IMG/VR virus record: IMGVR_UViG_2693429719_000008
Location: 1-22,252 of that record
Length of the DNA stretch: 22,252 bases
Direction: 5' to 3' (one strand)
Source of the DNA: a virus
Lineage: Duplodnaviria > Heunggongvirae > Uroviricota > Caudoviricetes
Under the pieces are notes generated by a model. That model searched no databases. It saw nothing but the letters and a program-made list of their open reading frames with translations, and had not been told where the DNA came from. Both the position numbers and the translations under genes were made by a program. Shown in pieces: positions 2,090-19,505 of this stretch. Positions within the stretch are counted from its first letter, which is position 1; each line of letters starts with the position of its first letter.

Positions 2090-2300
2090 TGTTCATTCCA
2101 CGGACAAAAACAGAGAAAGGAAACGACAGAGGCTAAAAAGCCCGTTTTCAGCACCTGTCGTTTCCTTTCTTTTCAGGGGGGGTTTTAAATAAAAACATTA
2201 GGTTACGGCGAAGAAGAACGGAAACGCCTTAAACCGGAAAATTTTCATAAATAGCGAAAACCCGCGCGCCTTCCGCCCCGTAACGTTCTGGATCGCCGGA
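2090..2300. other. cos region (cosB, cosN, cosQ side); cohesive-end 12-mer equivalent at 2267-2278
   Basis: RC of 2161-2266 matches the first ~110 nt of the lambda left end (CGCGGGTTTTCGCTATTTATGAAAATTTTCCGG...); the cosN flank CGTTACG is present at 2279-2285. Confidence 0.75.
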
Positions 2301-2456
2301 AAGGACCCGAAAATGATAATACATATCAATTACACTTAAAGGGGGGGGTTAATTTGTTCACATCAACACTCCGGACCCCAATGGCCTTCTACTCTGGTTT
2401 TGCCATAAAATAGTCCTGATACATATTCATATCAGTTAGTCATATACGGAAAAAAT

Positions 2457-2783
2457 ATGGGCATTACTATTTTCAGCAGTGAAATACAGGATGTTGATAG
2501 CGAAGCGATGTACAAGAGTTGGCTAGCAACCCATTCCGATGGATTCGTTATTAATCTGCTTAAGTCGGCCAGCGGGAAAGGCAGAAAAAATGATGCCAGA
2601 TTTACGCGGATTCATCGAGCCTCATGCAAATCAATCAACCCGTTAATCAGCCCAAAAAATCACGCCGGCTTTACTACTGGCCGATACCAAAAAGTATGTG
2701 TTCTTACGCTTGACGAGGCCGAGTCCACCGCAGGCCAACTAACAGGACTGCCAACCATCCAGAGATGTCATTGGTGTATATAA
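2457..2783 (+). CDS. Hypothetical protein, cargo gene next to cos, transcribed opposite to the terminase genes
   Basis: 108-aa ORF preceded by an AT-rich region and followed by a hairpin terminator; no family recognised. Confidence 0.35.
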   Translation: MGITIFSSEIQDVDSEAMYKSWLATHSDGFVINLLKSASGKGRKNDARFTRIHRASCKSINPLISPKNHAGFTTGRYQKVCVLTLDEAESTAGQLTGLPTIQRCHWCI

Positions 2784-2827
2784 GATACTGCAGTTACGAT
2801 GGGCCTGCCCATGATGACGGAATAATA

Positions 2828-2846
2828 AACCGCCAAAAAGGCGGTT
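2828..2846. terminator. Bidirectional rho-independent terminator-like hairpin between convergent ORFs
   Basis: AACCGCC-AAAAA-GGCGGTT stem-loop flanked by A/T-rich runs on both strands, directly after the stops of the 2457..2783 (+) and 2848..3135 (-) ORFs. Confidence 0.5.
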
Positions 2847-2847
2847 A

Positions 2848-3135
2848 TTAAATTTGACCTCTTGACTTTTCTATTTCATAAAGACCCACTCCATCTCCTG
2901 CATCAAGCAATGCATAATATTCAGGGTCTTTAATTCGATCTATCTGATTTGAAATTTCAAGTAACTCATCCTTTAAAGAATCTACTTCAGAGGCTAATCT
3001 TTCATTTTCATCCCTCAGCTCCCTAACTTCTTGCTGTAAAGACAGTAAGCTCTTCCCGGTTGCTGGAAATCGGTTTATCTCATGCCAGATTGCAACTATT
3101 AAAGCTAATACCGCAACGGTTAAAGATGTCATCAT
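2848..3135 (-). CDS. Small membrane-anchored coiled-coil protein, function unknown
   Basis: 95 aa with an N-terminal hydrophobic segment (SLTVAVLALIVAIW) followed by heptad-like charged sequence (LQQEVRELRDENERLASEVDSLKDELLEI); GGGAGA-type RBS before ATGATG. Confidence 0.5.
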   Translation of the reverse strand: MMTSLTVAVLALIVAIWHEINRFPATGKSLLSLQQEVRELRDENERLASEVDSLKDELLEISNQIDRIKDPEYYALLDAGDGVGLYEIEKSRGQI

Positions 3136-3163
3136 TGGTCTCCCTTTACTTTACAGGATATAG

Positions 3164-3200
3164 CACCATCACAGACACTCTACGAGATCCTGTGATGGTG
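3164..3200. repeat. Perfect 11-bp inverted repeat (CACCATCACAG / CTGTGATGGTG) with 15-nt spacer in the 5' region of the 2848..3135 gene
   Basis: Read directly from the sequence. Confidence 0.6.
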
Positions 3201-3242
3201 AGATTAGAATGGAGGCTGTCTATGGTGATGCACCTGTGGATG

Positions 3243-3782
3243 TTATGATTTTTCGATCATTTTTATTACATTTTTGGCTGGCTTAATTTTCATCGTATCG
3301 CCGGTAGCAAGGTGCACAAGCAACATTAATTTGCGAACGTTGCCGCCCTGTTCCCATATCTTATTTTTCATATCTCTGGCCCAGTCGCCATTAGTATCAT
3401 TTTGAATAAAGAAAAATGCATATTCGCCATGCTCAATTTTTTTTGGTAAATCGTCACCAAACCCACCCCCCAGAATCTGAAGTAGTGAGTTTTTTGTACC
3501 GAACGTCCATGTTACTGAAGTTATAGTTGCGGTTTGAATGCCAACATTTGCAATGTTGATCGTAACTCCAAACGTGCTCACATTTTGGCCTGTGATGCCC
3601 CCAAGCGATACTGTTCCTCTTAACTTCGGTCGAGGTCGACGGTTAGAAATATATAAAGTCAGGCATACTGCCATAAAGGTTGCAATGCCTGAAAACCACG
3701 TTCCTACCATTGACCAAAAAGCCCATTCTGCTGTATTTCTAGTGGCAACCAATGATTCGTAAGCTATATAATCTGCGTTCAT
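3243..3782 (-). CDS. Single-pass membrane protein, function unknown; start uncertain (ATG at 3782 with GAGGTG RBS, or ATG at 3824)
   Basis: AT-rich coding region; the track ORF extends to 3986 through GC-rich DNA that is probably not coding. N-terminal hydrophobic segment AEWAFWSMVGTWFSGIATFMAVCLTLYI followed by a ~130-aa soluble part. Confidence 0.45.
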   Translation of the reverse strand: MNADYIAYESLVATRNTAEWAFWSMVGTWFSGIATFMAVCLTLYISNRRPRPKLRGTVSLGGITGQNVSTFGVTINIANVGIQTATITSVTWTFGTKNSLLQILGGGFGDDLPKKIEHGEYAFFFIQNDTNGDWARDMKNKIWEQGGNVRKLMLLVHLATGDTMKIKPAKNVIKMIEKS

Positions 3783-4100
3783 CTTCACCTCATTTATCGA
3801 TGAAGTGATTGTAACTAAAAGCATTATCGCAAGCACTAAGTGAATGCCAACCACACTCTCGCAGTAGCTGCGCTCATTCCCTTGAGGCCATGTGTCAGGG
3901 GTATCTCGTGAATCCCTCACCACTAACCGGAAGCTGACTGGCGACCAGCCTGGAGTACCGGTGCGCTTCTTCCCGTTACCCCTCACCAGTACGCCCTCAG
4001 CTTTTTACCTGAGACTGGCTACCCGCAACTTTGGGTATTCGGGGCAGCATCATGACTGCTGCATTGGCGCCACTTGCCACGGTCCGTCCGCTTTACTGCT

Positions 4101-5615: not shown

Positions 5616-6419
5616 ATGACAGAAAAAGATAACATTGGTAAGTTAATTTGGCATATTGCTTGCGATGAATCTGGCATTGATGGGCAACGTTTCTACGGCT
5701 TTGGCAGTCTGTGGATGAAGTACCAACGCCGTGGGGATTTCTGTCAACTAATCAGAGAACTACGCAGCAAACATGGTTTTTTTGAAGAAATAAAATGGCA
5801 AAAAGCCCATTCAAAAAGATACTCTGAATTTTATCTTGAGCTGATCGACTTATTCTTTAGAGTTCCTTGGCTAGCTTTTCATTGTATCGTGGTTGAAAAA
5901 TCAATAGTAAACAAGACATTTCATAATGGGGATTATGACCTGGCAAGGAGAAAGCACTTCACAAATCTCATTACCACAAAAATTAGCTCTGTAATTTCTG
6001 CACACCCTGAAAGAGACAGTTACTTCAGGATTGAAGTTGATCCTATCGCATCTCGTTATAAAAAGGCCGATGAAGAACTAAATGTTATTGCCAATAACAT
6101 ATTGAATAGAAAATTTGGTCGTAAAGGGATAATCAGCAGTGTAGTGACAAAAGACTCTAAAGCATCTGAAAACATTCAGCTAGCCGATTTTTTCTTAGGT
6201 GCGGTTATGTGCGCATATCAAGGAAAAGCTTCATCTGAAGCCAAAATAAGAGTATCAAACTATGTTGCTTCATATTTAGGCTGGGATCATTTGCAATATG
6301 ATACATGGCACACTGAGAGAAAATTTAATATCTGGTATTTTTATGATAAAACTCGAGGGTCACGAGATATAGAAACTCAAAATGTTAGCTTAAAGTATCC
6401 ACTTCCCCAAAAGAAATAG
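5616..6419 (+). CDS. DUF3800-like protein, cargo gene of unknown function
   Basis: 267 aa with N-terminal HIACDESGIDG and C-terminal NIQLADFFLG motifs that I associate with DUF3800; lies in an AT-rich island with its own upstream AT-rich region. Confidence 0.6.
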   Translation: MTEKDNIGKLIWHIACDESGIDGQRFYGFGSLWMKYQRRGDFCQLIRELRSKHGFFEEIKWQKAHSKRYSEFYLELIDLFFRVPWLAFHCIVVEKSIVNKTFHNGDYDLARRKHFTNLITTKISSVISAHPERDSYFRIEVDPIASRYKKADEELNVIANNILNRKFGRKGIISSVVTKDSKASENIQLADFFLGAVMCAYQGKASSEAKIRVSNYVASYLGWDHLQYDTWHTERKFNIWYFYDKTRGSRDIETQNVSLKYPLPQKK

Positions 6420-6640: not shown

Positions 6641-7330
6641 TCAATCCAGTTTTGCAATACTTTGCTGTGAAAATGTCGTCTTTTGTTTTGAACGTGTTCT
6701 CGTTACAAGCAATAAAGCTTCGCTATCAAGCTGTAGAAAAATGTGCTTCATTGCAACCCAGCGTTCAGTAAATGTCTCAGACCAGTTTTTTGATGTCACT
6801 CCCACCAGTGATGCCAGCTCCTGGTATTCATAGGTCTTACGCCCTGCCAGCTCGTTCTTCACATCCTGTGCCGCCAGCCAGATCAACTTCTTCAAACGTT
6901 CCAGTGTCTTACCTGCAATTTTTCTGGTACCCAACAGAGTCTTAAACTCGCTCCATGCCCACTGCGTTATGGTGACCTGATGTTCCCAGCGAACACTTTC
7001 GCTGTAACTCCACAGCAACCACGCTTTCTGATGTTCTTCGAGAGACAGAACCGCGCGGCGCCATGACGAGGTTGAGAACTCAACCTGGCTTACCAGTGCA
7101 ATGGATGAACCTTTTGCGTACGACTGCTTACCGGAAATCGGCGGATTATCCAGCGTAATCATCCTGCCAGTTACCTCATCCAGAATGCGCAGCTTCTTTC
7201 GTTTGTATGTACCAGTATCAAATTGTGCATGCTCCAGCCAGGCTTCAAGCTGTCCTTTCGTTGCTCCGCTCAAATCAGCGGTAGCCACAATGAGTTGCTC
7301 GCGGACATACTGTAAATATTGGGTATTCAT
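6641..7330 (-). CDS. Putative late-gene antiterminator, Q-position protein (long cysteine-free type)
   Basis: 229-aa ORF in the Q slot between ylcG/rusA and the lysis genes; start overlaps the ylcG-like stop; contains no Cys, so it is not a lambda/82/21 zinc-finger Q. Assignment is mainly positional. Confidence 0.4.
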   Translation of the reverse strand: MNTQYLQYVREQLIVATADLSGATKGQLEAWLEHAQFDTGTYKRKKLRILDEVTGRMITLDNPPISGKQSYAKGSSIALVSQVEFSTSSWRRAVLSLEEHQKAWLLWSYSESVRWEHQVTITQWAWSEFKTLLGTRKIAGKTLERLKKLIWLAAQDVKNELAGRKTYEYQELASLVGVTSKNWSETFTERWVAMKHIFLQLDSEALLLVTRTRSKQKTTFSQQSIAKLD

Positions 7331-8941: not shown

Positions 8942-9574
8942 TCAGGCCTTGGAAAGCTTGAGCTTACCCTTTACGTGCAGAGTGTTAATTAACCAGAAGG
9001 CCCCGAGCAAACACATACAATGCGCGCTAGTGACTAACTTACAAATACGAATGCGATTTTCTTCAAGATCAGGAGGTAGCTCTTTCATCAACGCTATAGC
9101 GTAGATTCCATCCTTGAGAATTGGCTCAACAACTTGATGCACGTAGCCACCATGGTTAATCTCTTCTAACTTTATGTTTTTAATCGATTCTGCGAGTTTA
9201 TCAACCTCTTCATTTGTAATTACATATTCAATTTTATGAGCGTACTTGTTACGTATTGTGTTGAGCTCAGCCATAGCGTCTGCAAGCGAGACAGGAAGCC
9301 CTAACAGAACTGCGGCAGACAGCTTTGACGCAAAATACTTATAGCTTCTTATCGAATTGTATTTTTCAGAGCCATCAGGTCGTAAGTTTTCAATAACAAC
9401 CCGAAGAAAGTCCTCATGAATTAGCATCAATTTTAATAGCGCGGCAGACTCATCCTCATAGTTAGCTATCGAGGCCATTTTATTAAGATCTAGAAAATAG
9501 CCAAAGTCATGATCGATTTTCACGTAGTTACCCTCATCCGTTGTTGGACTTTGTTCAATTCGAGAGAATTTCAT
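8942..9574 (-). CDS. Hypothetical protein with a possible HEPN-type Rx4H motif; candidate effector of the nin cargo cassette
   Basis: 210 aa, AT-rich; contains NTIRNKYAHK (R-x4-H); predicted mostly helical; start ATG overlaps the stop of an upstream 58-aa ORF. Confidence 0.5.
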   Translation of the reverse strand: MKFSRIEQSPTTDEGNYVKIDHDFGYFLDLNKMASIANYEDESAALLKLMLIHEDFLRVVIENLRPDGSEKYNSIRSYKYFASKLSAAVLLGLPVSLADAMAELNTIRNKYAHKIEYVITNEEVDKLAESIKNIKLEEINHGGYVHQVVEPILKDGIYAIALMKELPPDLEENRIRICKLVTSAHCMCLLGAFWLINTLHVKGKLKLSKA

Positions 9575-9747
9575 TTATCTTCCTCCTGTTTCATATATCT
9601 AGGGTCAGATGCTTTAGGCTGGGTGATGCTATGCTCAATGGAGAAGCCGGACGCGCTCCATGTTGATTTGCCAGTTTGAGCTATCGTGACAACACATTCA
9701 TTATTGTCGATGTTAACTTCGCGCAGCACTGGTAACTGTGAATTCAT
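9571..9747 (-). CDS. Small protein (58 aa) translationally coupled to the downstream 210-aa gene
   Basis: Hand-translated MNSQLPVLREVNIDNNECVVTIAQTGKSTWSASGFSIEHSITQPKASDPRYMKQEEDK; GGAG RBS 8 nt upstream; stop TGA overlaps the next ATG. Below the ORF-track size cutoff. Confidence 0.4.
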   Translation of the reverse strand: MNSQLPVLREVNIDNNECVVTIAQTGKSTWSASGFSIEHSITQPKASDPRYMKQEEDK

Positions 9748-9817
9748 TTTCTAACTCCTGTTTAATGTTGACACCGCATTTATGCTGTCACGACACAATT
9801 ACTTTCTATCCTGCTGT

Positions 9818-9838
9818 GATGCTGCTGACAGCGGCATC
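9818..9838. promoter_or_regulatory. Imperfect 21-bp palindrome (GATGCTGCTGACAGCGGCATC) upstream of the small-ORF/210-aa operon; candidate operator
   Basis: 18/21 positions are self-complementary; located in the 160-bp gap between the Bro-N gene and the small ORF. Confidence 0.35.
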
Positions 9839-9909
9839 CAATACCTTACCTTCTCAGCATTCTGCAAAATCGATGACGAGTCATGACCGGTTCGCGTAGC
9901 TCAGTGAAA

Positions 9910-10521
9910 TTACTGCAACCTTTCCTGACGGAAATATGGTAACACTCGACTCCACTTATCATCCTGCCAAGGCTGGAATTTTACATGTGCCGTTTCTCTG
10001 GCGAGGATTGCTCGCGCTCTGTTGAGTATCTGGGGATATTCTTGCTCGATAGAAGTAAAGCGACCGGCTTCGCGGTGCTCCGCGACCTGAAGAAGTGGAG
10101 TAACGTTCTGGCAGGCAGTTAACATCACATCACTTGCTCGCCATAACCAAGCAAGTGTGCAAAGTTCGTTATCAGTGAATTGTTTTGTGATTGGGGATTG
10201 TTGAATTTCTCGATCGAGAAGATCCAGCACCCAGCGGCGGAATTCTTTGGCCACAGGAGTACGAGCAAACATGGCGATCAGATGGGCGCCTCGCAGGGAG
10301 AAAATGCGTATTGTTTTCTGGTAGTTCCCTGAGACACTCAAATTGAGGGTCTCAGTCATATCTGCCCTAAATTCATCGGAATTTCGATCGTAGATCTGAG
10401 TAACGGCATCAGATTTTTTATATCCGAGAGCTTGAGCAATCTCAACGGCAGTAAGCCAGATATTGTTGTTGTGGTTAATAGGATGGAATTTTGTTTGATG
10501 AAAGACTAGTTGTGTGCTCAT
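9910..10521 (-). CDS. Bro-N / antirepressor-like protein
   Basis: 203 aa; the N-terminal region (...NIWLTAVEIAQALGYKKSDAVTQIY...IFSLRGAHLIAMFARTPVAKEFRRWVLDLLD) resembles Bro-N/AntA-type phage regulatory domains. Confidence 0.55.
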   Translation of the reverse strand: MSTQLVFHQTKFHPINHNNNIWLTAVEIAQALGYKKSDAVTQIYDRNSDEFRADMTETLNLSVSGNYQKTIRIFSLRGAHLIAMFARTPVAKEFRRWVLDLLDREIQQSPITKQFTDNELCTLAWLWRASDVMLTACQNVTPLLQVAEHREAGRFTSIEQEYPQILNRARAILARETAHVKFQPWQDDKWSRVLPYFRQERLQ

Positions 10522-10791: not shown

Positions 10792-10881
10792 TCAACCCCA
10801 GTAAATGGACACCATGATGATCACAGCCATAGCTGCTACAACTGTTGCAACTACTTTATGCCAAGACATCACGATTTCCAT
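10792..10881 (-). CDS. Small hydrophobic peptide (29 aa), possible membrane toxin-like ORF
   Basis: Hand-translated MEIVMSWHKVVATVVAAMAVIIMVSIYWG; AAGG RBS-like sequence upstream. Below the ORF-track size cutoff. Confidence 0.3.
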   Translation of the reverse strand: MEIVMSWHKVVATVVAAMAVIIMVSIYWG

Positions 10882-10948
10882 ATCGCCTTTAGCCGCCAGA
10901 CGAACAGAGATTCCCAGCTTTATACTGCCGAGGCCAAACACCGAATAT

Positions 10949-11074
10949 AAAAAACCGCAGGTGCATTTCTACATCTGTGAAGGGAGAAGATAATTTGGAT
11001 TGTATGTGCGCATAAACGTCCCCGTTTAGCGCAGAAGTCATCGGAGTTGTTCAGGCTCCGATGACATGATTATG
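10949..11074 (+). repeat. 126-bp direct repeat, copy B (partner at 8765..8890)
   Basis: See copy A; the hairpin in copy B (11037-11065) is a perfect 10-bp stem. Confidence 0.85.
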
Positions 11075-11101
11075 AAAGGTTGATTCTAAAAAAATCAAAA
11101 A

Positions 11102-11359
11102 TTAATTTTTAGTTGTGTCTTCTTGAAAAGAAGTTCTCACTCTTAAAATATGATATCCAATAGAATTGATATCGCTTTTAGCTCTTACGTCATTGATACC
11201 TATCATCCCAGGTTCTAACAACTCACTTTTTTTGATAATTGAAAATTTCGAGAAGTCAGGATCACTCACCCCGAGGGCATTTCCTGTAACCACTGTATTC
11301 GCTGGGACAACAAGATACTTAGAATTACAAATATCACTTTTATAAATATCTACATACAT
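11102..11359 (-). CDS. Hypothetical protein in an AT-rich moron immediately downstream of P
   Basis: 85-aa ORF in a strongly AT-rich block (about 11075-11615) with a long AT-rich upstream region; no family recognised. Confidence 0.4.
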   Translation of the reverse strand: MYVDIYKSDICNSKYLVVPANTVVTGNALGVSDPDFSKFSIIKKSELLEPGMIGINDVRAKSDINSIGYHILRVRTSFQEDTTKN

Positions 11360-11615
11360 TATAGTTTTCCTTTTTACAACTTAGACATTTCAAATCATAG
11401 AAATTAACATGTTACATCTTCGCATTATGTTTTGTCATCTATGAATATTGAGAATCACTTGCATGTTGCAATGTCTTCGACTGCTCACAGCGTAAGTATC
11501 CCTGCAAAATCATATCTTCAAGCTCAGTTCTATTAAAAAAATAACTTAATTATTTCTGCGTCGATTGATATTTCCTTCTAGCCCAATTTTGCACACAAAA
11601 ACCAGTATTGCTCAC

Positions 11616-13899: not shown

Positions 13900-14127
13900 T
13901 TAGGCGGCAGAATTACTCGCGTTAAACAATGGTGCGAGGTCGGGACGAATATCTGCTGGCTTAATCTTTCCACCAGTGGCTGAGACAATTTTCATTACAT
14001 AGCGGGCATCAATTCCGCCACCGTGTAGCCAACGCCAAACAGTGGGCTGGGCTACACCGCATAGATCTGCCAGTCGTTTTTGACTACCTGTAATACTGAT
14101 TGCGAGTTGAATGGTTTGATTTGTCAT
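13900..14127 (-). CDS. cro: Cro-like repressor (helix-turn-helix)
   Basis: 75 aa from the ATG at 14127 (the track ORF begins 2 codons upstream at TTG): MTNQTIQLAISITGSQKRLADLCGVAQPTVWRWLHGG...; divergent from cI across the operator region; AGGA RBS. Confidence 0.65.
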   Translation of the reverse strand: MTNQTIQLAISITGSQKRLADLCGVAQPTVWRWLHGGGIDARYVMKIVSATGGKIKPADIRPDLAPLFNASNSAA

Positions 14128-14237
14128 TATCAATTCCTATTGGTATTACAATGAATGGATAATAGCAATGCGTATTAACCATGGCAATAGCAAAACGTGT
14201 TTTGACCATCAATACGCAAGCGTATAAATTAAAACTT
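14128..14237. promoter_or_regulatory. OR region: three 16-bp operator sites at 25-bp spacing with divergent pR and pRM
   Basis: Sites AATAGCAATGCGTATT (14161-14176), AATAGCAAAACGTGTT (14186-14201), AATACGCAAGCGTATA (14211-14226). pR on the minus strand: -35 TTGCCA (14182-14187), 17-nt spacer, -10 TATTAT (14159-14164). pRM -10 TATAAA at 14223-14228 places the start close to the cI ATG. Confidence 0.6.
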
Positions 14238-14930
14238 ATGAAAAAAGAAACTCTTGCTGATCGCTTAAACCTAGCGATGGAACAATCTGGGATGTCTCAA
14301 GGCGCTCTTGCAAAGGCGTCTGGCGTAGCTCAACCCACAATCTGGAGACTGACAAGCGGCAACGCGCGCGGCTCAACAAAAATTGTTGAAATAGCTAATG
14401 CATTGGGTGTTCGAACAGAGTGGCTCTCATCAGGCATAGGCCCGATGAGAAATGACGGTCAACAATCAGGGAAGCCTACTGTCAACCATTCCAAATACTT
14501 CAAGATTGACGTTCTTGATATAGAAGTGAGTGCCGGGCCGGGAGTCATCAACCGTGAGTTTGTAGAAGTCCTACGCTCGGTTGAGTACTCGTTTGACGAT
14601 GCTCGTCACATGTTCGATGGCAGGAAGGCGGAAAATATCCGCATCATTAACGTACGTGGTGACAGCATGTCAGGAACAATCGAACCAGGTGATCTGCTGT
14701 TCGTTGATATCACGGTTAAATCTTTCGACGGTGATGGCATCTATGCGTTTCTGTACGACGACACAGCCCATGTAAAGCGCCTGCAAATGATGAAGGATAA
14801 GCTGTTGGTTATCTCTGATAACAAGAGCTACTCACCGTGGGACCCGATCGAGAAAGACGAGATGAACCGGGTGTTCATTTTTGGGAAAGTCATCGGGAGC
14901 ATGCCGCAGACCTACAGGAAGCATGGGTAG
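14238..14930 (+). CDS. cI: CI-type prophage repressor (N-terminal HTH, C-terminal S24 LexA-like autopeptidase)
   Basis: MKKETLADRLNLAMEQSGMSQGALAKASGVAQPTIWRL... HTH, then VRGDSMSGTIEPGDLLFVD and AHVKRL (Ser/Lys dyad context). The track ORF starts at 14181, but that would place operators inside the coding sequence. Confidence 0.85.
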   Translation: MKKETLADRLNLAMEQSGMSQGALAKASGVAQPTIWRLTSGNARGSTKIVEIANALGVRTEWLSSGIGPMRNDGQQSGKPTVNHSKYFKIDVLDIEVSAGPGVINREFVEVLRSVEYSFDDARHMFDGRKAENIRIINVRGDSMSGTIEPGDLLFVDITVKSFDGDGIYAFLYDDTAHVKRLQMMKDKLLVISDNKSYSPWDPIEKDEMNRVFIFGKVIGSMPQTYRKHG

Positions 14931-14965
14931 GTAGTATGTAAAGAATTACCTTTGGTTGATTTGTA

Positions 14966-14995
14966 ATAGCTACCGATTACGTTATCGGTAGCTAT
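14966..14995 (+). terminator. Perfect 12-bp inverted repeat hairpin (ATAGCTACCGAT / ATCGGTAGCTAT, 6-nt loop) between cI and the downstream gene; partial terminator or protein-binding site
   Basis: Read directly; followed by AAGAAATTTTTAT, so the T-run is offset 7 nt from the stem. Confidence 0.4.
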
Positions 14996-15053
14996 AAGAA
15001 ATTTTTATGTCTTTAACTGTGTTTATTTATTCAATACTAGTTGGACTATAGCA

Positions 15054-16076
15054 ATGAAAGATAACAGACAAAAAGTCGTTCATTATAAAAAAGCAGTAAT
15101 CCCACACAGCAAATCATCATTACAAAACATACTACTTAGTATTATAGGTGAGGGCGGCGTTGCAGAAAAAGTACTTAGTAGACAAGAAAAAATAACACCT
15201 TCAGATGAAAATTCGGGGTATCGTTTCTTAAATAAAAGCGACACATACAAAACTATACTTTTTGGGCAACTGGTTTTATTTGAAAAAGACAAAAGCCAGT
15301 CTCTATTAGAGCTTAGTGATAATGTTAAATTTTATGACATTAACTCCATCACGTCTAATGATATAATTATTGATGGAGATAAACGTAGTGACAAAAAAAG
15401 AGAGTTTGTAGATTCAATTTTATATTTTGGTGTACTAAACAACCATGTCATGATCGTTCAATCCACATCGCTTCGAGCAAGGGAGCTTGAGGCGCATTTG
15501 AATTGGCTAATTAATACATTCACAGATGAAAAAGAATCTGTGTTAATGCTTCAAGATAAGCCATCCGAAGAAACGATGAAAAAAATGGAGAAAGCACCAG
15601 CCAAGAGCATAAAAATTGGTGGATTACCCATTACTTCAGAAGTTAAAAATTCAGAGAACCAAACACCCTCCTTTTCAAATGGTTCGGTGAAGACAATAAA
15701 ATACCGCCCAATAGGGAAAGGAGGTGCGCTACTAAAAGCATTTTTTGGCGATAACTGGGCAAATGATATAAACATTAAAGATTCATTAGATGAGGCCAAT
15801 TTACAAGTAAGCCTCGAGATTACATACTTCAGAAAAACAAATGATAGCGGTCAAGCTGTTATAGACAGTATTGCTACCTCACTACGACATCTAGATGAGG
15901 ATGATATTAGCATCAAACTTCAAGGCGGTGGGGAAATAACGGGAAAAGAGATAAAATTATCCGGAAAAATTAGCGTTGAACATAACAATGGCATTATTGA
16001 TGAAAATGATTTATTCTTAAAAATGCATAAGTGGCTGTTCTCAAAACTTGATGCCGGAGAATTGGTTGCAAAATAA
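15054..16076 (+). CDS. Hypothetical soluble protein in the rexA position, candidate phage-exclusion component
   Basis: 340 aa, AT-rich, directly downstream of cI on the same strand; no Walker or nuclease motif recognised. Confidence 0.5.
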   Translation: MKDNRQKVVHYKKAVIPHSKSSLQNILLSIIGEGGVAEKVLSRQEKITPSDENSGYRFLNKSDTYKTILFGQLVLFEKDKSQSLLELSDNVKFYDINSITSNDIIIDGDKRSDKKREFVDSILYFGVLNNHVMIVQSTSLRARELEAHLNWLINTFTDEKESVLMLQDKPSEETMKKMEKAPAKSIKIGGLPITSEVKNSENQTPSFSNGSVKTIKYRPIGKGGALLKAFFGDNWANDINIKDSLDEANLQVSLEITYFRKTNDSGQAVIDSIATSLRHLDEDDISIKLQGGGEITGKEIKLSGKISVEHNNGIIDENDLFLKMHKWLFSKLDAGELVAK

Positions 16077-16097
16077 CCTACCAAAAGGAGGGCGATA

Positions 16098-16604
16098 ATG
16101 AAATCGAACATCATCCACCTTATTGGTATGTTGGTCTTCTATTTTGCTGGTTACTTTTTGTTCAAGTTAGCATTGGGCTATATTACACCGGGTGTTGTCC
16201 TAACAGCTCCGTGGGCTGTGGTTGGACTCATGCAATTGCCATTATCATATTGTATACAAGCCATTTTTAAGGCAAATGAGGCCAATGACCACTCGTCTTT
16301 AACCCCTAGTGAGGTTAGGCGATTAGTGCCAATAGTCAAATCCAAGAGACTGAAATTGGTTTTATTATTAGCTTTCTATGTATTTTCAACTTTGTTTGTA
16401 ATCTTGGGGTTAATAGCAAGCACAAATGATCAAGCCCTACTCTTCAGGGTCTTAAAAATTTCAGGTGGATTACTCTTTATTTCTCTCTATACCAGTGTAT
16501 TCGTTCATAAAATAATGGTTGAGCTTCAAGAGTTTAAAGCGTTATTAAACCGAAGAGAATCAGAGAAGAAGGAAAGAGAGTCACTCCTGGATAGATTAAA
16601 ATGA
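16098..16604 (+). CDS. Four-TM membrane protein in the rexB position, candidate phage-exclusion component
   Basis: 168 aa with four hydrophobic segments and a charged C-terminal tail (NRRESEKKERESLLDRLK); GGAGG RBS; starts 22 nt after the preceding gene. Confidence 0.5.
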   Translation: MKSNIIHLIGMLVFYFAGYFLFKLALGYITPGVVLTAPWAVVGLMQLPLSYCIQAIFKANEANDHSSLTPSEVRRLVPIVKSKRLKLVLLLAFYVFSTLFVILGLIASTNDQALLFRVLKISGGLLFISLYTSVFVHKIMVELQEFKALLNRRESEKKERESLLDRLK

Positions 16605-16613
16605 CCCCCCCTC

Positions 16614-16640
16614 CCCGGCCGTCGTGCCGGGTTTTCTTTT
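16614..16640 (+). terminator. Rho-independent terminator ending the cI / rex-position operon
   Basis: CCCGGC-CGTCGT-GCCGGG hairpin followed by TTTTCTTTT, 10 nt after the stop. Confidence 0.7.
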
Positions 16641-16765
16641 GCCTCCCCTCATCACACACCGTTCAAAAAACCACCATAACCCCCGCTTCAGTTATCGCTA
16701 TGCGATGCAAGTCACAAAATTAATTCCTTTTGCTATCAAACAGTTAATATCAAAATACATCAATC

Positions 16766-16808
16766 AATAGCAATAAGTATTGATATCACCAATAGCAATA
16801 GCTATTAT
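16766..16808 (+). promoter_or_regulatory. OL / pL: two operator sites overlapping a near-consensus sigma70 promoter reading rightward in the window
   Basis: Operators AATAGCAATAAGTATT (16766-16781) and AATAGCAATAGCTATT (16791-16806), 25-bp spacing, same consensus as OR; -35 TTGATA (16780-16785), 17-nt spacer, -10 TATTAT (16803-16808); operator/promoter overlap geometry is identical to pR. Confidence 0.6.
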
Positions 16809-16881
16809 TACCATGTCGCAACAACACAACGATACGGCAACCACCTGATTCGCCGTTGCGATGACCGCTTAGATCCGCAGC

Positions 16882-17292
16882 TTGAATTTCAGCAGGCTCC
16901 GGGGAGTGCGAGGGGTGAAGCGGACGCGTGAACGTCGGTGTGACCAGCTCAAATCAACTCAACACTTCATACCTCAGTCGCTTCAACGAGGCGGCTTAGT
17001 TATGACAACCGGCGGCCATCCACCGCCTGAATACGCGCAGAAGTCTCTATATGTTCAGCAGCCCAGCTTACGGGCAGGAGTTTTTATGGTTCATCAACAT
17101 TACGGAACTCAGACCGTTAATCGCGGTGCCGTCCGGCCAGGTATGCTGGTTAAACACAAAGATGGTACCTGGACGGCATCAGCTAATTTGCGCGGTCGGC
17201 TTTACTTGCATCGCGGCATCGAACGAACGTACACAAAAGATTTGCTCGTGGAGGTTTACCTGAATGGTACTGGCGGTGGTCTGAGCCACTAA
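16882..17292 (+). CDS. Hypothetical basic protein in the N position (TTG start in the track; alternative ATG at 17002 with GAGG RBS)
   Basis: If read from TTG the N-terminus contains an Arg-rich stretch (RGVRGVKRTRERR) reminiscent of N-type ARM motifs, but the rest shows no resemblance to lambda N. Confidence 0.3.
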   Translation: MNFSRLRGVRGVKRTRERRCDQLKSTQHFIPQSLQRGGLVMTTGGHPPPEYAQKSLYVQQPSLRAGVFMVHQHYGTQTVNRGAVRPGMLVKHKDGTWTASANLRGRLYLHRGIERTYTKDLLVEVYLNGTGGGLSH

Positions 17293-17296
17293 CTAC

Positions 17297-17611
17297 TCAC
17301 TTGTTTGGGCCGTGTGGAGCCAAAGCAAATTCAAGGTTGTAGATACTCCCATCAGGGGCTTTGAAATCAACCTCAAACCGAGATGGCGGATTGAATGGAT
17401 CGAGTACATTTTCTGCTACGCATGTAGATCTCCAATTGATATGGCCTTTGCCAAGCGAGCGAGATTCCCACCAAGCTCTCCAGGTCTGGTCTTGCGGTTG
17501 ATCACTCCCCTTTTCCCTTACATACCAATGATTCTTTTTCGACTGCTTACCCATTTCTGCGGTTGGGTACATCGGAGAAGACTTTAACTTATCAATCAGC
17601 ATTCTAGACAC
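17297..17611 (-). CDS. Hypothetical protein transcribed opposite to the pL operon
   Basis: 104-aa ORF whose stop lies 4 nt from the stop of the convergent 16882..17292 ORF; no family recognised. Confidence 0.4.
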   Translation of the reverse strand: MSRMLIDKLKSSPMYPTAEMGKQSKKNHWYVREKGSDQPQDQTWRAWWESRSLGKGHINWRSTCVAENVLDPFNPPSRFEVDFKAPDGSIYNLEFALAPHGPNK

Positions 17612-17740
17612 CTTATTTATCAGATTTTGAGCAAGACATAGTGTGATCCAACATTTTGATTAATCAAGCGAGTTCATTCAAACAACTATGCAGTTAACGC
17701 ACTGTCTGGATCCGCACATCAAAATTTCAGGAGTTTATCC

Positions 17741-18037
17741 ATGAACGCTTATTACATTCAGGATCGTCTTGAGGCTCAGAGCTGGGCGCGTCACTACCAG
17801 CAGATCGCCCGTGAAGAGAAAGAGGCAGAACTGGCAGACGACATGGAAAAAGGCCTGCCCCAGCACCTGTTTGAATCACTCTGCATCGATCATTTGCAAC
17901 GCCACGGGGCCAGCAAAAAAGCCATTACCCGTGCGTTTGATGACGATGTTGAGTTTCAGGAGCGCATGGCAGAACACATCCGGTACATGGTTGAAACCAT
18001 TGCTCACCACCAGGTTGATATTGATTCAGAGGTATAA
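17741..18037 (+). CDS. gam: Gam, RecBCD inhibitor (short 98-aa form)
   Basis: [60 protein letters not shown]... matches lambda Gam as I recall it; upstream frame is closed by a stop, so the long form is not encoded here. Confidence 0.95.
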
Positions 18038-18042
18038 AACGG

Positions 18043-18828
18043 ATGAGTACAGCACTCGCAACGCTGGCTGGGAAGCTGGCTGAACGTGTCGGCATGGATT
18101 CTGTCGACCCACAGGAACTGATCACCACTCTTCGTCAGACGGCATTTAAAGGTGATGCCAGCGATGCGCAGTTCATCGCATTGCTGATCGTCGCCAACCA
18201 GTACGGCCTTAATCCGTGGACGAAAGAAATTTACGCCTTCCCCGATAAGCAGAACGGCATCGTTCCGGTGGTGGGCGTTGATGGCTGGTCCCGCATCATC
18301 AACGAAAACCAGCAGTTTGACGGCATGGACTTTGAACAGGACAACGAATCCTGCACATGCCGGATTTACCGCAAAGACCGCAATCATCCGATCTGCGTTA
18401 CCGAGTGGATGGATGAATGCCGCCGCGAACCATTCAAAACCCGCGAAGGCAGAGAAATCACGGGGCCGTGGCAGTCGCATCCCAAACGGATGTTACGGCA
18501 TAAAGCCATGATTCAGTGTGCCCGTCTCGCCTTCGGATTTGCTGGTATCTATGACAAGGATGAAGCCGAGCGCATTGTCGAAAATACCGCATACACTGCA
18601 GAACGTCAGCCGGAACGCGACATCACTCCGGTTAACGATGAAACCATGCAGGAGATTAACACTCTGCTGATTGCCCTGGATAAAACATGGGATGACGACT
18701 TATTGCCGCTCTGTTCCCAGATATTTCGCCGCGACATTCGCGCATCGTCAGAACTGACACAGGCCGAAGCAGTGAAAGCTCTTGGATTCCTGAAACAGAA
18801 AGCCACTGAGCAGAAGGTGGCAGCATGA
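18043..18828 (+). CDS. bet: Bet (Red-beta) single-strand annealing protein
   Basis: 261 aa [66 protein letters not shown]... matches lambda Bet. Confidence 0.95.
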
Positions 18829-19505
18829 CACCGTACATTATCCTGCAGCGTACCGGGATCGACGTGAGAGCTGTCGAACAGGGGGATGATGCATGGCACA
18901 AATTACGGCTCGGCGTCATCACCGCTTCAGAAGTTCACAACGTGATAGCAAAGCCCCGATCAGGAAAGAAGTGGCCTGACATGAAAATGTCCTACTTCCA
19001 CACCCTGCTGGCTGAGGTTTGCACCGGTGTGGCTCCGGAAGTTAACGCTAAAGCGCTGGCCTGGGGAAAACAGTACGAGAACGACGCCAGAACCCTGTTT
19101 GAATTCACTTCCGGCGTGAATGTTACTGAATCCCCGATCATCTATCGCGACGAAAGTATGCGCACCGCCTGCTCTCCCGATGGTTTATGCAGTGACGGCA
19201 ATGGCCTTGAGCTGAAATGCCCGTTTACCTCCCGGGATTTCATGAAGTTCCGGCTCGGTGGTTTCGAGGCCATAAAGTCGGCTTACATGGCCCAGGTGCA
19301 GTACAGCATGTGGGTGACGCGAAAAGATGCCTGGTACTTTGCCAACTATGACCCGCGTATGAAGCGTGAAGGACTGCATTATGTCGTGGTTGAGCGGGAT
19401 GAAAAGTACATGGCGGGTTTTGACGAGATGGTGCCGGAGTTCATCGAAAAAATGGACGAGGCACTGGCTGAAATTGGTTTTGTATTTGGGGAGCAATGGC
19501 GATGA
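18825..19505 (+). CDS. exo: Exo (Red-alpha) 5'-3' exonuclease
   Basis: 226 aa [65 protein letters not shown]... matches lambda Exo. Confidence 0.95.

Follow-up and report, generated by a model that had tools for sequence, protein, structure and literature searches.

A candidate RexAB-type exclusion module, outside the RexA and RexB sequence families, in the cI-proximal slot of a Perceval-like prophage

Rex of phage lambda was the first abortive-infection system to be discovered, and what triggers it is still a matter of question. The Rex-like systems described to date number only five, and in four of them the membrane protein is the effector. Lambda RexA is built from a globular domain in two pieces (residues 1–139 and 248–279) separated by a dimerisation domain (residues 143–234), and the RexA-like proteins of actinobacteriophages dimerise and bind DNA non-specifically. 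In RexABpp of the Pseudomonas putida prophage P1, both genes are needed for defence, and overexpression of RexA leads to RexB-dependent membrane damage (Sci Rep 2026, PMC12894663). Here we describe a two-gene cassette located 3' of the cI repressor gene in a 22,252-nt stretch of a Caudoviricetes genome (IMG/VR record IMGVR_UViG_2693429719_000008, positions 1–22,252; hereafter the window, to whose coordinates all positions refer unless another locus is named). The two open reading frames (ORFs) are designated ORF-A and ORF-B, and their products A and B. The analysis covered the arrangement of the genes, the fold predicted for A, the topology of B, the pairing of the two genes and their mobility between accessory slots, and transcription in the lysogen was taken from the literature. 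In our best explanation, which we consider fairly probable, the prophage encodes in this cassette a two-component module of the RexAB type that is expressed in the lysogen and acts in abortive infection or exclusion. We file A–B as a sequence family that is new but of the RexAB kind, and that lies outside the RexA and RexB Pfam families, because sequence-family membership fails, whereas the fold (for A only), the topology of the partner, the adjacency of the genes, their position and their expression in the lysogen all agree with a RexAB system.

The locus is arranged on the repressor strand as follows.

14181/14238–14930, plus strand: ORF of the cI-type immunity repressor, with HTH_3 and Peptidase_S24 domains; left edge of the slot
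14931–16613, plus strand: AT-rich exchangeable cargo cassette, delimited by blastn against phages carrying GevTA or HipAD and by GC content
14959–15002, plus strand: hairpin with 22-nt inverted arms, found by RNA folding
15054–16076, plus strand: ORF-A, encoding a soluble, predicted RexA-fold protein of 340 amino acids (aa)
16098–16604, plus strand: ORF-B, encoding a basic inner-membrane protein of 168 aa with four predicted transmembrane (TM) helices and a long charged C-terminal helix
16614–16641, plus strand: intrinsic terminator closing the immunity transcript (tIMM-like, backbone), supported by terminator scan, folding, and conservation in sister phages with other cargo
16765–16813, plus strand: OL operators with AATAGCAAT-type repeats, overlapping a pL-like promoter (16780–16808; promoter-like match TTGATA-17-TATTAT)

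The cI start at 14238 is the one annotated for the CI repressor of Escherichia phage Perceval. The GC content of 14931–16613 is 35.8%, as compared with 48.6% for cI and 50.4% for 16614–19505 on the kil-gam-bet-exo side. The terminator begins 10 bases past the stop codon of B with a stem of six G:C pairs (CCCGGC-6 nt-GCCGGG, 16614–16631) followed by TTTTCTTTTG; we take it to be the positional counterpart of lambda tIMM. Its folding energy of -12.1 kcal/mol is decent, short of exceptional. The AATAGCAAT-type repeats are common to OL and to OR (14125–14208, between cro and cI). A further segment, TGGACTATAGCAATG (15042–15056), spans the start codon of ORF-A and agrees in 13 of 15 bases with an OR segment, TGGATAATAGCAATG (14156–14170), a likeness that could be due to chance or to a repressor half-site. 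The first-pass annotation of this DNA had placed genes for a 340-aa soluble and a 168-aa four-TM protein right after cI on the same strand, in the slot and with the architecture of lambda rexA–rexB, AT-rich relative to both flanks and closed by a strong terminator just before OL/pL. The ORF map, hydropathy and the structural model of B bear out the two proteins, the GC values bear out the compositional contrast, and the gene order is that of lambda cI–rexA–rexB–terminator–OL/pL; the terminator stands where it was placed.

The region is 98.3% identical, over its full length, to Perceval, a prophage of the adherent-invasive Escherichia coli (AIEC) strain LF82, in which A is annotated as PERCE_43 ("hypothetical protein") and B as PERCE_42 ("transmembrane protein"). 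In pairwise blastn comparisons with sister phages carrying other cargo, homology breaks off precisely with the stop codon of cI (14930) and is regained from the initial base of the terminator stem (16614); therefore, the cassette comprises 14931–16613 and is exchangeable in a fixed slot, and the terminator is part of the phage backbone. The other cargo found in the same slot, with cI and the right flank shared, is GevT/GevA in PhiR47_2 and HipA/HipD in PhiR5_1. The module is present at ≥99% identity in 43 of 5,426 complete E. coli genomes, 99 of which contain lambda rexAB. In one E. coli genome (NZ_CP128255.1), an IS3 element interrupts the module.

A is soluble, with a maximum 19-residue hydropathy of 1.12 and no hydrophobic segment. 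Its homologues form 129 clusters, all named "hypothetical" (Enterobacterales, Methylococcaceae, Pseudomonas, Aeromonas, Marinobacter, Halomonas, and others), versus 31 clusters when canonical RexA is searched for in the same way. A template-free AlphaFold2 model built from 73 family sequences (predicted local distance difference test score (pLDDT), 71; predicted template-modelling score, 0.69) is confident at residues 1–180 and 300–335 and low at residues 190–254. When this model was compared by Foldseek with 350,542 PDB chains, the top match was lambda RexA (8TWQ_B; E-value, 6.7e-4; probability, 0.99), and on the strength of the model A would have the RexA fold required of the soluble component. 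The model consists of an N-terminal β-rich domain, an inserted β/α domain containing four helices, and a C-terminal helix of high confidence, an order that seems to parallel the split globular domain and inserted dimerisation domain of RexA. Pfam RdgC (PF04381) matched no member of the A family, and RdgC was not the closest structure either.

ORF-B is preceded by a strong Shine–Dalgarno sequence, AAAGGAGGG, and its product is basic (isoelectric point, 9.8). The AlphaFold2 model of B (pLDDT, 94) shows four long helices (residues 2–27, 39–64, 70–107, and 112–167). Because Lys and Arg residues are confined to the loop at residues 58–86 and the C-terminal tail, the topology of B is read as N-in/C-in. 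The model, the charge pattern and the adjacency of the genes agree in placing a four-TM inner-membrane partner directly downstream of A. The B family, seen only by exhaustive profile search, has 87 representatives, nearly all of 160–195 aa, and the only near-invariant positions in an alignment of 83 sequences are those of the S/TxxExRRL loop and the FKxxLxxR tail. A variant of 207 aa with an extended C-terminus is encoded at locus L046, and a 207-aa B homologue, P0121, represents 28 member sequences. The only near-significant match of B in a Foldseek search of BFVD, U5P455 (108 aa; 32% identity), seems to be a truncated B homologue, possibly the copy in Shigella phage SfIV that is cut by IS1. 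ORF-A and ORF-B are real genes rather than chance ORFs, because both have homologues (129 clusters for A and 87 profile matches for B) and transcripts of both are present in a 98%-identical lysogen, as described below.

The pairing of the two genes is strict. Among 114 loci with A homologues, drawn from GTDB genomes, IMG/VR and assemblies, 110 have a B-family ORF directly 3' of A on the same strand (median gap, 15 bp), down to 35% identity in A, and the four loci without a called B are accounted for by contig ends or ORF-calling artefacts. In 50 of the 114 loci, from diverse gammaproteobacteria, the ORF just upstream on the same strand resembles a CI- or helix-turn-helix-type repressor, as in prophages of Methylobacter, Pseudomonas and Morganella, and in Acinetobacter phages. 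The pair also occupies the following sites.

Klebsiella aerogenes: A–B pair between Q and the lysis genes, adjoining HicAB
Shigella phage SfIV (KC814930; locus L186, 2405–3827): A–B pair (52% identity in A) between Q and the holin gene, with B truncated to 108 aa by IS1
Stx2a-converting O157:H7 phage Stx2a_1447 (AP012536; locus L187, 2992–4555): A–B pair (34% identity in A) between Q and methylase/tRNA/stx2A
Serratia: A–B pair inside the tail module
Xenorhabdus: A–B pair at a prophage end
Aeromonas: A–B pair after the primase gene of a satellite-like element beside rpoD

Because it is found in such varied accessory sites, the A–B pair behaves as a self-contained mobile moron, typical of prophage defence cargo and unlike a core part of the lysis–lysogeny switch. 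In the Methylobacter prophage (locus L005), a bona fide RdgC (PF04381) gene (9263–10174) lies about 3 kb downstream of A–B, in the same early-left-like region. RdgC homologues located left of cI have been reported in some lambdoid phages, with a RexA-like role suggested for them (Genome Research 2025).

Expression of the cassette was assessed from published RNA sequencing (RNA-seq), under five conditions, of the LF82 lysogen of Perceval, a prophage 98% identical to the present one and not from this exact strain; the study used RNA-seq to define morons (PMC9928086). In overnight LB culture, PERCE_42 (B) was the top-expressed Perceval gene, at 81-fold over the prophage background, and cI stood at 11-fold (PMC9928086). 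Across the five conditions, log2(fpkm+5), where fpkm denotes fragments per kilobase per million, was 8.4–10.4 for B, 4.2–9.6 for A, 6.2–8.1 for cI, and about 2.3–3.4 for kil/gam/bet/exo (PMC9928086, supplementary table). Both A and B were transcribed in all five conditions, with the B transcript exceeding the A transcript in each, and kil, gam and bet were silent; the A transcript varied independently of cI and was about 5.6-fold above it in the condition denoted "B6" (PMC9928086). The cassette is thus expressed from the repressed prophage, as the first-pass annotation had supposed. Because the level of A shifts independently of cI and can exceed it, the cassette is probably served by one or more promoters of its own rather than simply being read through from pRM. 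A convincing promoter for A or B was not located: sigma-70-like matches within the cassette are no commoner than in shuffled sequence (12 versus 8.6 ± 3.5 expected), and no alignment was obtained between the regions upstream of divergent cassettes. Lambda rexB has an extra promoter, pLIT, and is expressed in excess, which is a parallel and not evidence for the present case. The hairpin at 14959–15002, 30 nt past the cI stop codon, has near-perfect 22-nt arms followed by AAGAAAUUUUUAUG, and its folding energy of -21.3 kcal/mol (z = -4.6) was equalled by none of 200 shuffled sequences; it may function as an attenuator or RNA-stability element that decouples A and B from cI and pRM.

In the mechanism that we propose, A, with its RexA-like, RdgC-related fold, would be a cytoplasmic and probably dimeric DNA-binding sensor, and B would be the inner-membrane effector with four TM helices in an N-in/C-in topology, kept in excess over A. 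On infection, activated A may trigger B via the conserved cytoplasmic S/TxxExRRL loop and the basic C-terminal helix bearing the FKxxLxxR tail; B would then depolarise the membrane or make it leak, so that growth stops and the cycle of the superinfecting phage is aborted. DNA binding by A, the A–B interaction, the membrane effect and the defence phenotype are all predicted. A more far-reaching reading, which we put forward tentatively as a possibility, is that RexA-fold proteins form a modular class of phage sensors whose pairing with four-TM effectors, not homologous to one another, has come about more than once. A–B would then constitute a defence system in its own right, distinguished by its effector and trigger spectrum and spread across Gammaproteobacteria as an autonomous moron, and, being native to E. 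coli, would open a second tractable way into a question that is 70 years old, namely what activates Rex.

The transcript levels of A and B might also be taken to suggest the reverse polarity, in which, as for gp30/gp31 of mycobacteriophage Butters, A is the toxic effector and B sequesters or neutralises it until infection releases A. Such an arrangement has been described for one Rex-like system, an excess of the B transcript over A in all five LF82 conditions is as expected of an antidote or sequestrator, and strict pairing fits either polarity. We nevertheless regard reversed roles as improbable: the membrane protein is the effector in four of the five described Rex-like systems, B is a conserved and confidently predicted four-helix bundle whose long basic tail is typical of pore- or lesion-forming effectors, and lambda rexB, owing to pLIT, is likewise in excess.

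Several results weigh against the assignment of A–B to the RexAB type. The model of A is a moderate one (pLDDT, 71, with residues 190–254 below 50), and the global TM-score in Foldseek is only about 0.3. BLASTP gave no match between A and RexA; Pfam RexA (PF15969) was absent from A and all 73 family members at E ≤ 10, so that A falls outside that sequence family; the hidden Markov model (HMM) of the A family revealed no link to RexA among PDB sequences; and hhalign of the A profile against RexA profiles of 26–47 sequences gave a probability of <1%, whether the alignments were shallow or enriched and the mode local or global. Likewise, hhalign of B against a 19-sequence RexB alignment gave a probability of 0.6%, Pfam RexB (PF15968) matched neither B nor 83 members of its family, which places B outside the RexB sequence family, and RexB was not among the matches of B in the Foldseek search of BFVD. 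At E ≤ 1, neither A nor B matched anything in the PADLOC-DB v2.0.0 library, other copies of the cassette are remote from any repressor, so that the likeness to the rex position is not universal, and the phenotype, DNA binding and A–B interaction are predictions for the A/B family. In addition, the family HMMs of A and B gave no match to lambda RexA and RexB with filters off, and that of B found no RexB link among PDB sequences. A direct sequence link of A/B to RexA/RexB was thus rejected, with BLASTP, Pfam, family HMMs and hhalign all negative, in keeping with the lack of resemblance noted in the first-pass annotation. Its suggestion of a divergent Rex-like pair, to be checked by Foldseek, Pfam and PADLOC, stands for A in terms of fold and for B in terms of topology; homology of B to RexB, a Pfam match and a match to a known defence system did not emerge.

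These negatives could also be explained if the likeness to RexA were a fold convergence or an artefact of the moderate AlphaFold2 model, with the pair being either an unrelated lysogenic-conversion module, which blocks injection or changes the envelope with the help of an accessory cytoplasmic protein, or an addiction pair. The missing profile-level sequence signal, the pLDDT of 71, the lack of RexB homology in B, and the toxin–antitoxin pairs occupying the same slot of sister phages all speak for such an explanation; lambda RexA, for its part, is the best match among all PDB chains compared. We judge it to be unlikely. Least likely is a role in the prophage life cycle, with A as a RexA-like modulator of the CI/Cro switch favouring lytic growth and B as a RexB-like protease modulator or membrane factor: lambda RexA reportedly biases the bistable switch in a manner that does not depend on RexB, the cassette directly follows cI here and a repressor-like gene in 50 of the 114 loci, and the A transcript changes strongly with growth condition, but the cassette also lies away from immunity regions (at Q–lysis/stx2, in tail modules, at prophage ends, and by the primase of a satellite-like element) and in the same slot is interchangeable with toxin–antitoxin-type cargo, which is moron behaviour.

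Searches of other libraries gave little further information on A and B. Neither matched Pfam, PHROGs returned only families of unknown function, and the matches in NCBIfam were insignificant and far under the curated cut-offs. Kiwa, which combines a four-TM KwaA with KwaB, was considered and rejected, as its gene order is reportedly opposite and neither PADLOC nor Pfam gave a match. PADLOC-DB v2.0.0 also had no match for the A homologues from Acinetobacter, the Stx2a phage and SfIV. The Acinetobacter phage phi1_092021 (PQ859669; locus L185, 2983–3984) encodes a 32%-identical A homologue downstream of a repressor, for which PADLOC v2 gave no match and which bears the GenBank label "DefenseFinder protein" with no system named. 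Elsewhere in the window, a 267-aa DUF3800 protein is encoded at 5616–6419 (plus strand) in an AT-rich island (GC content, about 0.36–0.39) beside the gene for the Q antiterminator (6641–7330, minus strand). It matches the PADLOC candidate defence family PDC-M04A (E-value, 7.5e-35) and is likely a second defence moron in the same prophage. Other AT-rich islands (2200–3800, 9000–9800, and 10800–11600; GC content, 0.33–0.43) hold ORFs without a Pfam or PADLOC match, and the following three are candidates for additional morons.

3243–3986, minus strand: ORF of 247 aa in an AT-rich island
8942–9574, minus strand: ORF of 210 aa in an AT-rich island
11102–11359, minus strand: ORF of 85 aa in an AT-rich island

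If the RexAB-type assignment holds, pairs of "hypothetical proteins" in gammaproteobacteria would become a sixth RexAB-type lineage, missed by Pfam and PADLOC, and the slot between cI and the terminator would be borne out, in Perceval-like phages, as a defence hotspot with exchangeable content, a statement for which the GenBank annotations of the PhiR phages are the sole basis. Copies of the family are carried by AIEC LF82, Shigella phage SfIV, Stx2a-converting O157:H7 phages and Acinetobacter baumannii prophages, and such prophages may affect the phage-therapy host range of the carrier strains. The family also provides an E. coli-native system for comparing how a RexA-fold sensor activates a membrane effector. 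For specialists, the surprise is limited by the RexA structure of 2024 and the P. putida paper of 2026, which precede this analysis, and the novelty would be somewhat lower if a current DefenseFinder model of RexA already reaches the branch of PQ859669.

Among the described systems, RdgC (PF04381; PDB ID, 2OWL) has a structural score for A much weaker than that of RexA, and differs in being a solitary chromosomal gene without a membrane partner. The actinobacteriophage pairs (Sbash gp30/gp31, CarolAnn gp44/gp43, Toast gp42, and Butters gp30/gp31) resemble A–B in combining a soluble RexA-like protein with a membrane protein expressed from the prophage, a likeness drawn without sequence comparison, and some of them adjoin the immunity repressor; they differ in their Gram-positive hosts and, in Butters, in the reversed roles, the soluble protein being the effector. 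RexABpp (PP_5643/PP_5644) shares with A–B a four-TM partner without detectable RexB homology and a position downstream of a CI-like repressor, from which it is separated, unlike A–B, by two extra genes. The termini of RexApp taken from the published primers (MHRTATFV... and ...VYNKQSRLMV) match no A-family member in the 114 loci, and DNA words derived from the RexApp and RexBpp primers had no matches in IMG/VR, the fetched loci or JGI metagenomes; the A family is apparently distinct from the RexApp sequence family, as set apart by these primer-derived termini alone. By analogy, RexABpp is the best functional precedent for A–B. With lambda RexAB (PF15969/PF15968; PDB ID, 8TWQ), neither A nor B shows any similarity detectable by sequence or profile, A exceeds the 279-aa RexA by 61 residues and contains the low-confidence segment 190–254, B is 24 residues longer than the 144-aa RexB and has a long charged cytoplasmic C-terminal helix, and the A–B cassette occupies non-immunity sites as well. 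What the two systems have in common is the order of cI, soluble gene, four-TM gene, terminator and OL/pL, all on the repressor strand, together with expression in the lysogen, a small N-in/C-in four-TM partner, and a membrane gene expressed above the soluble one.

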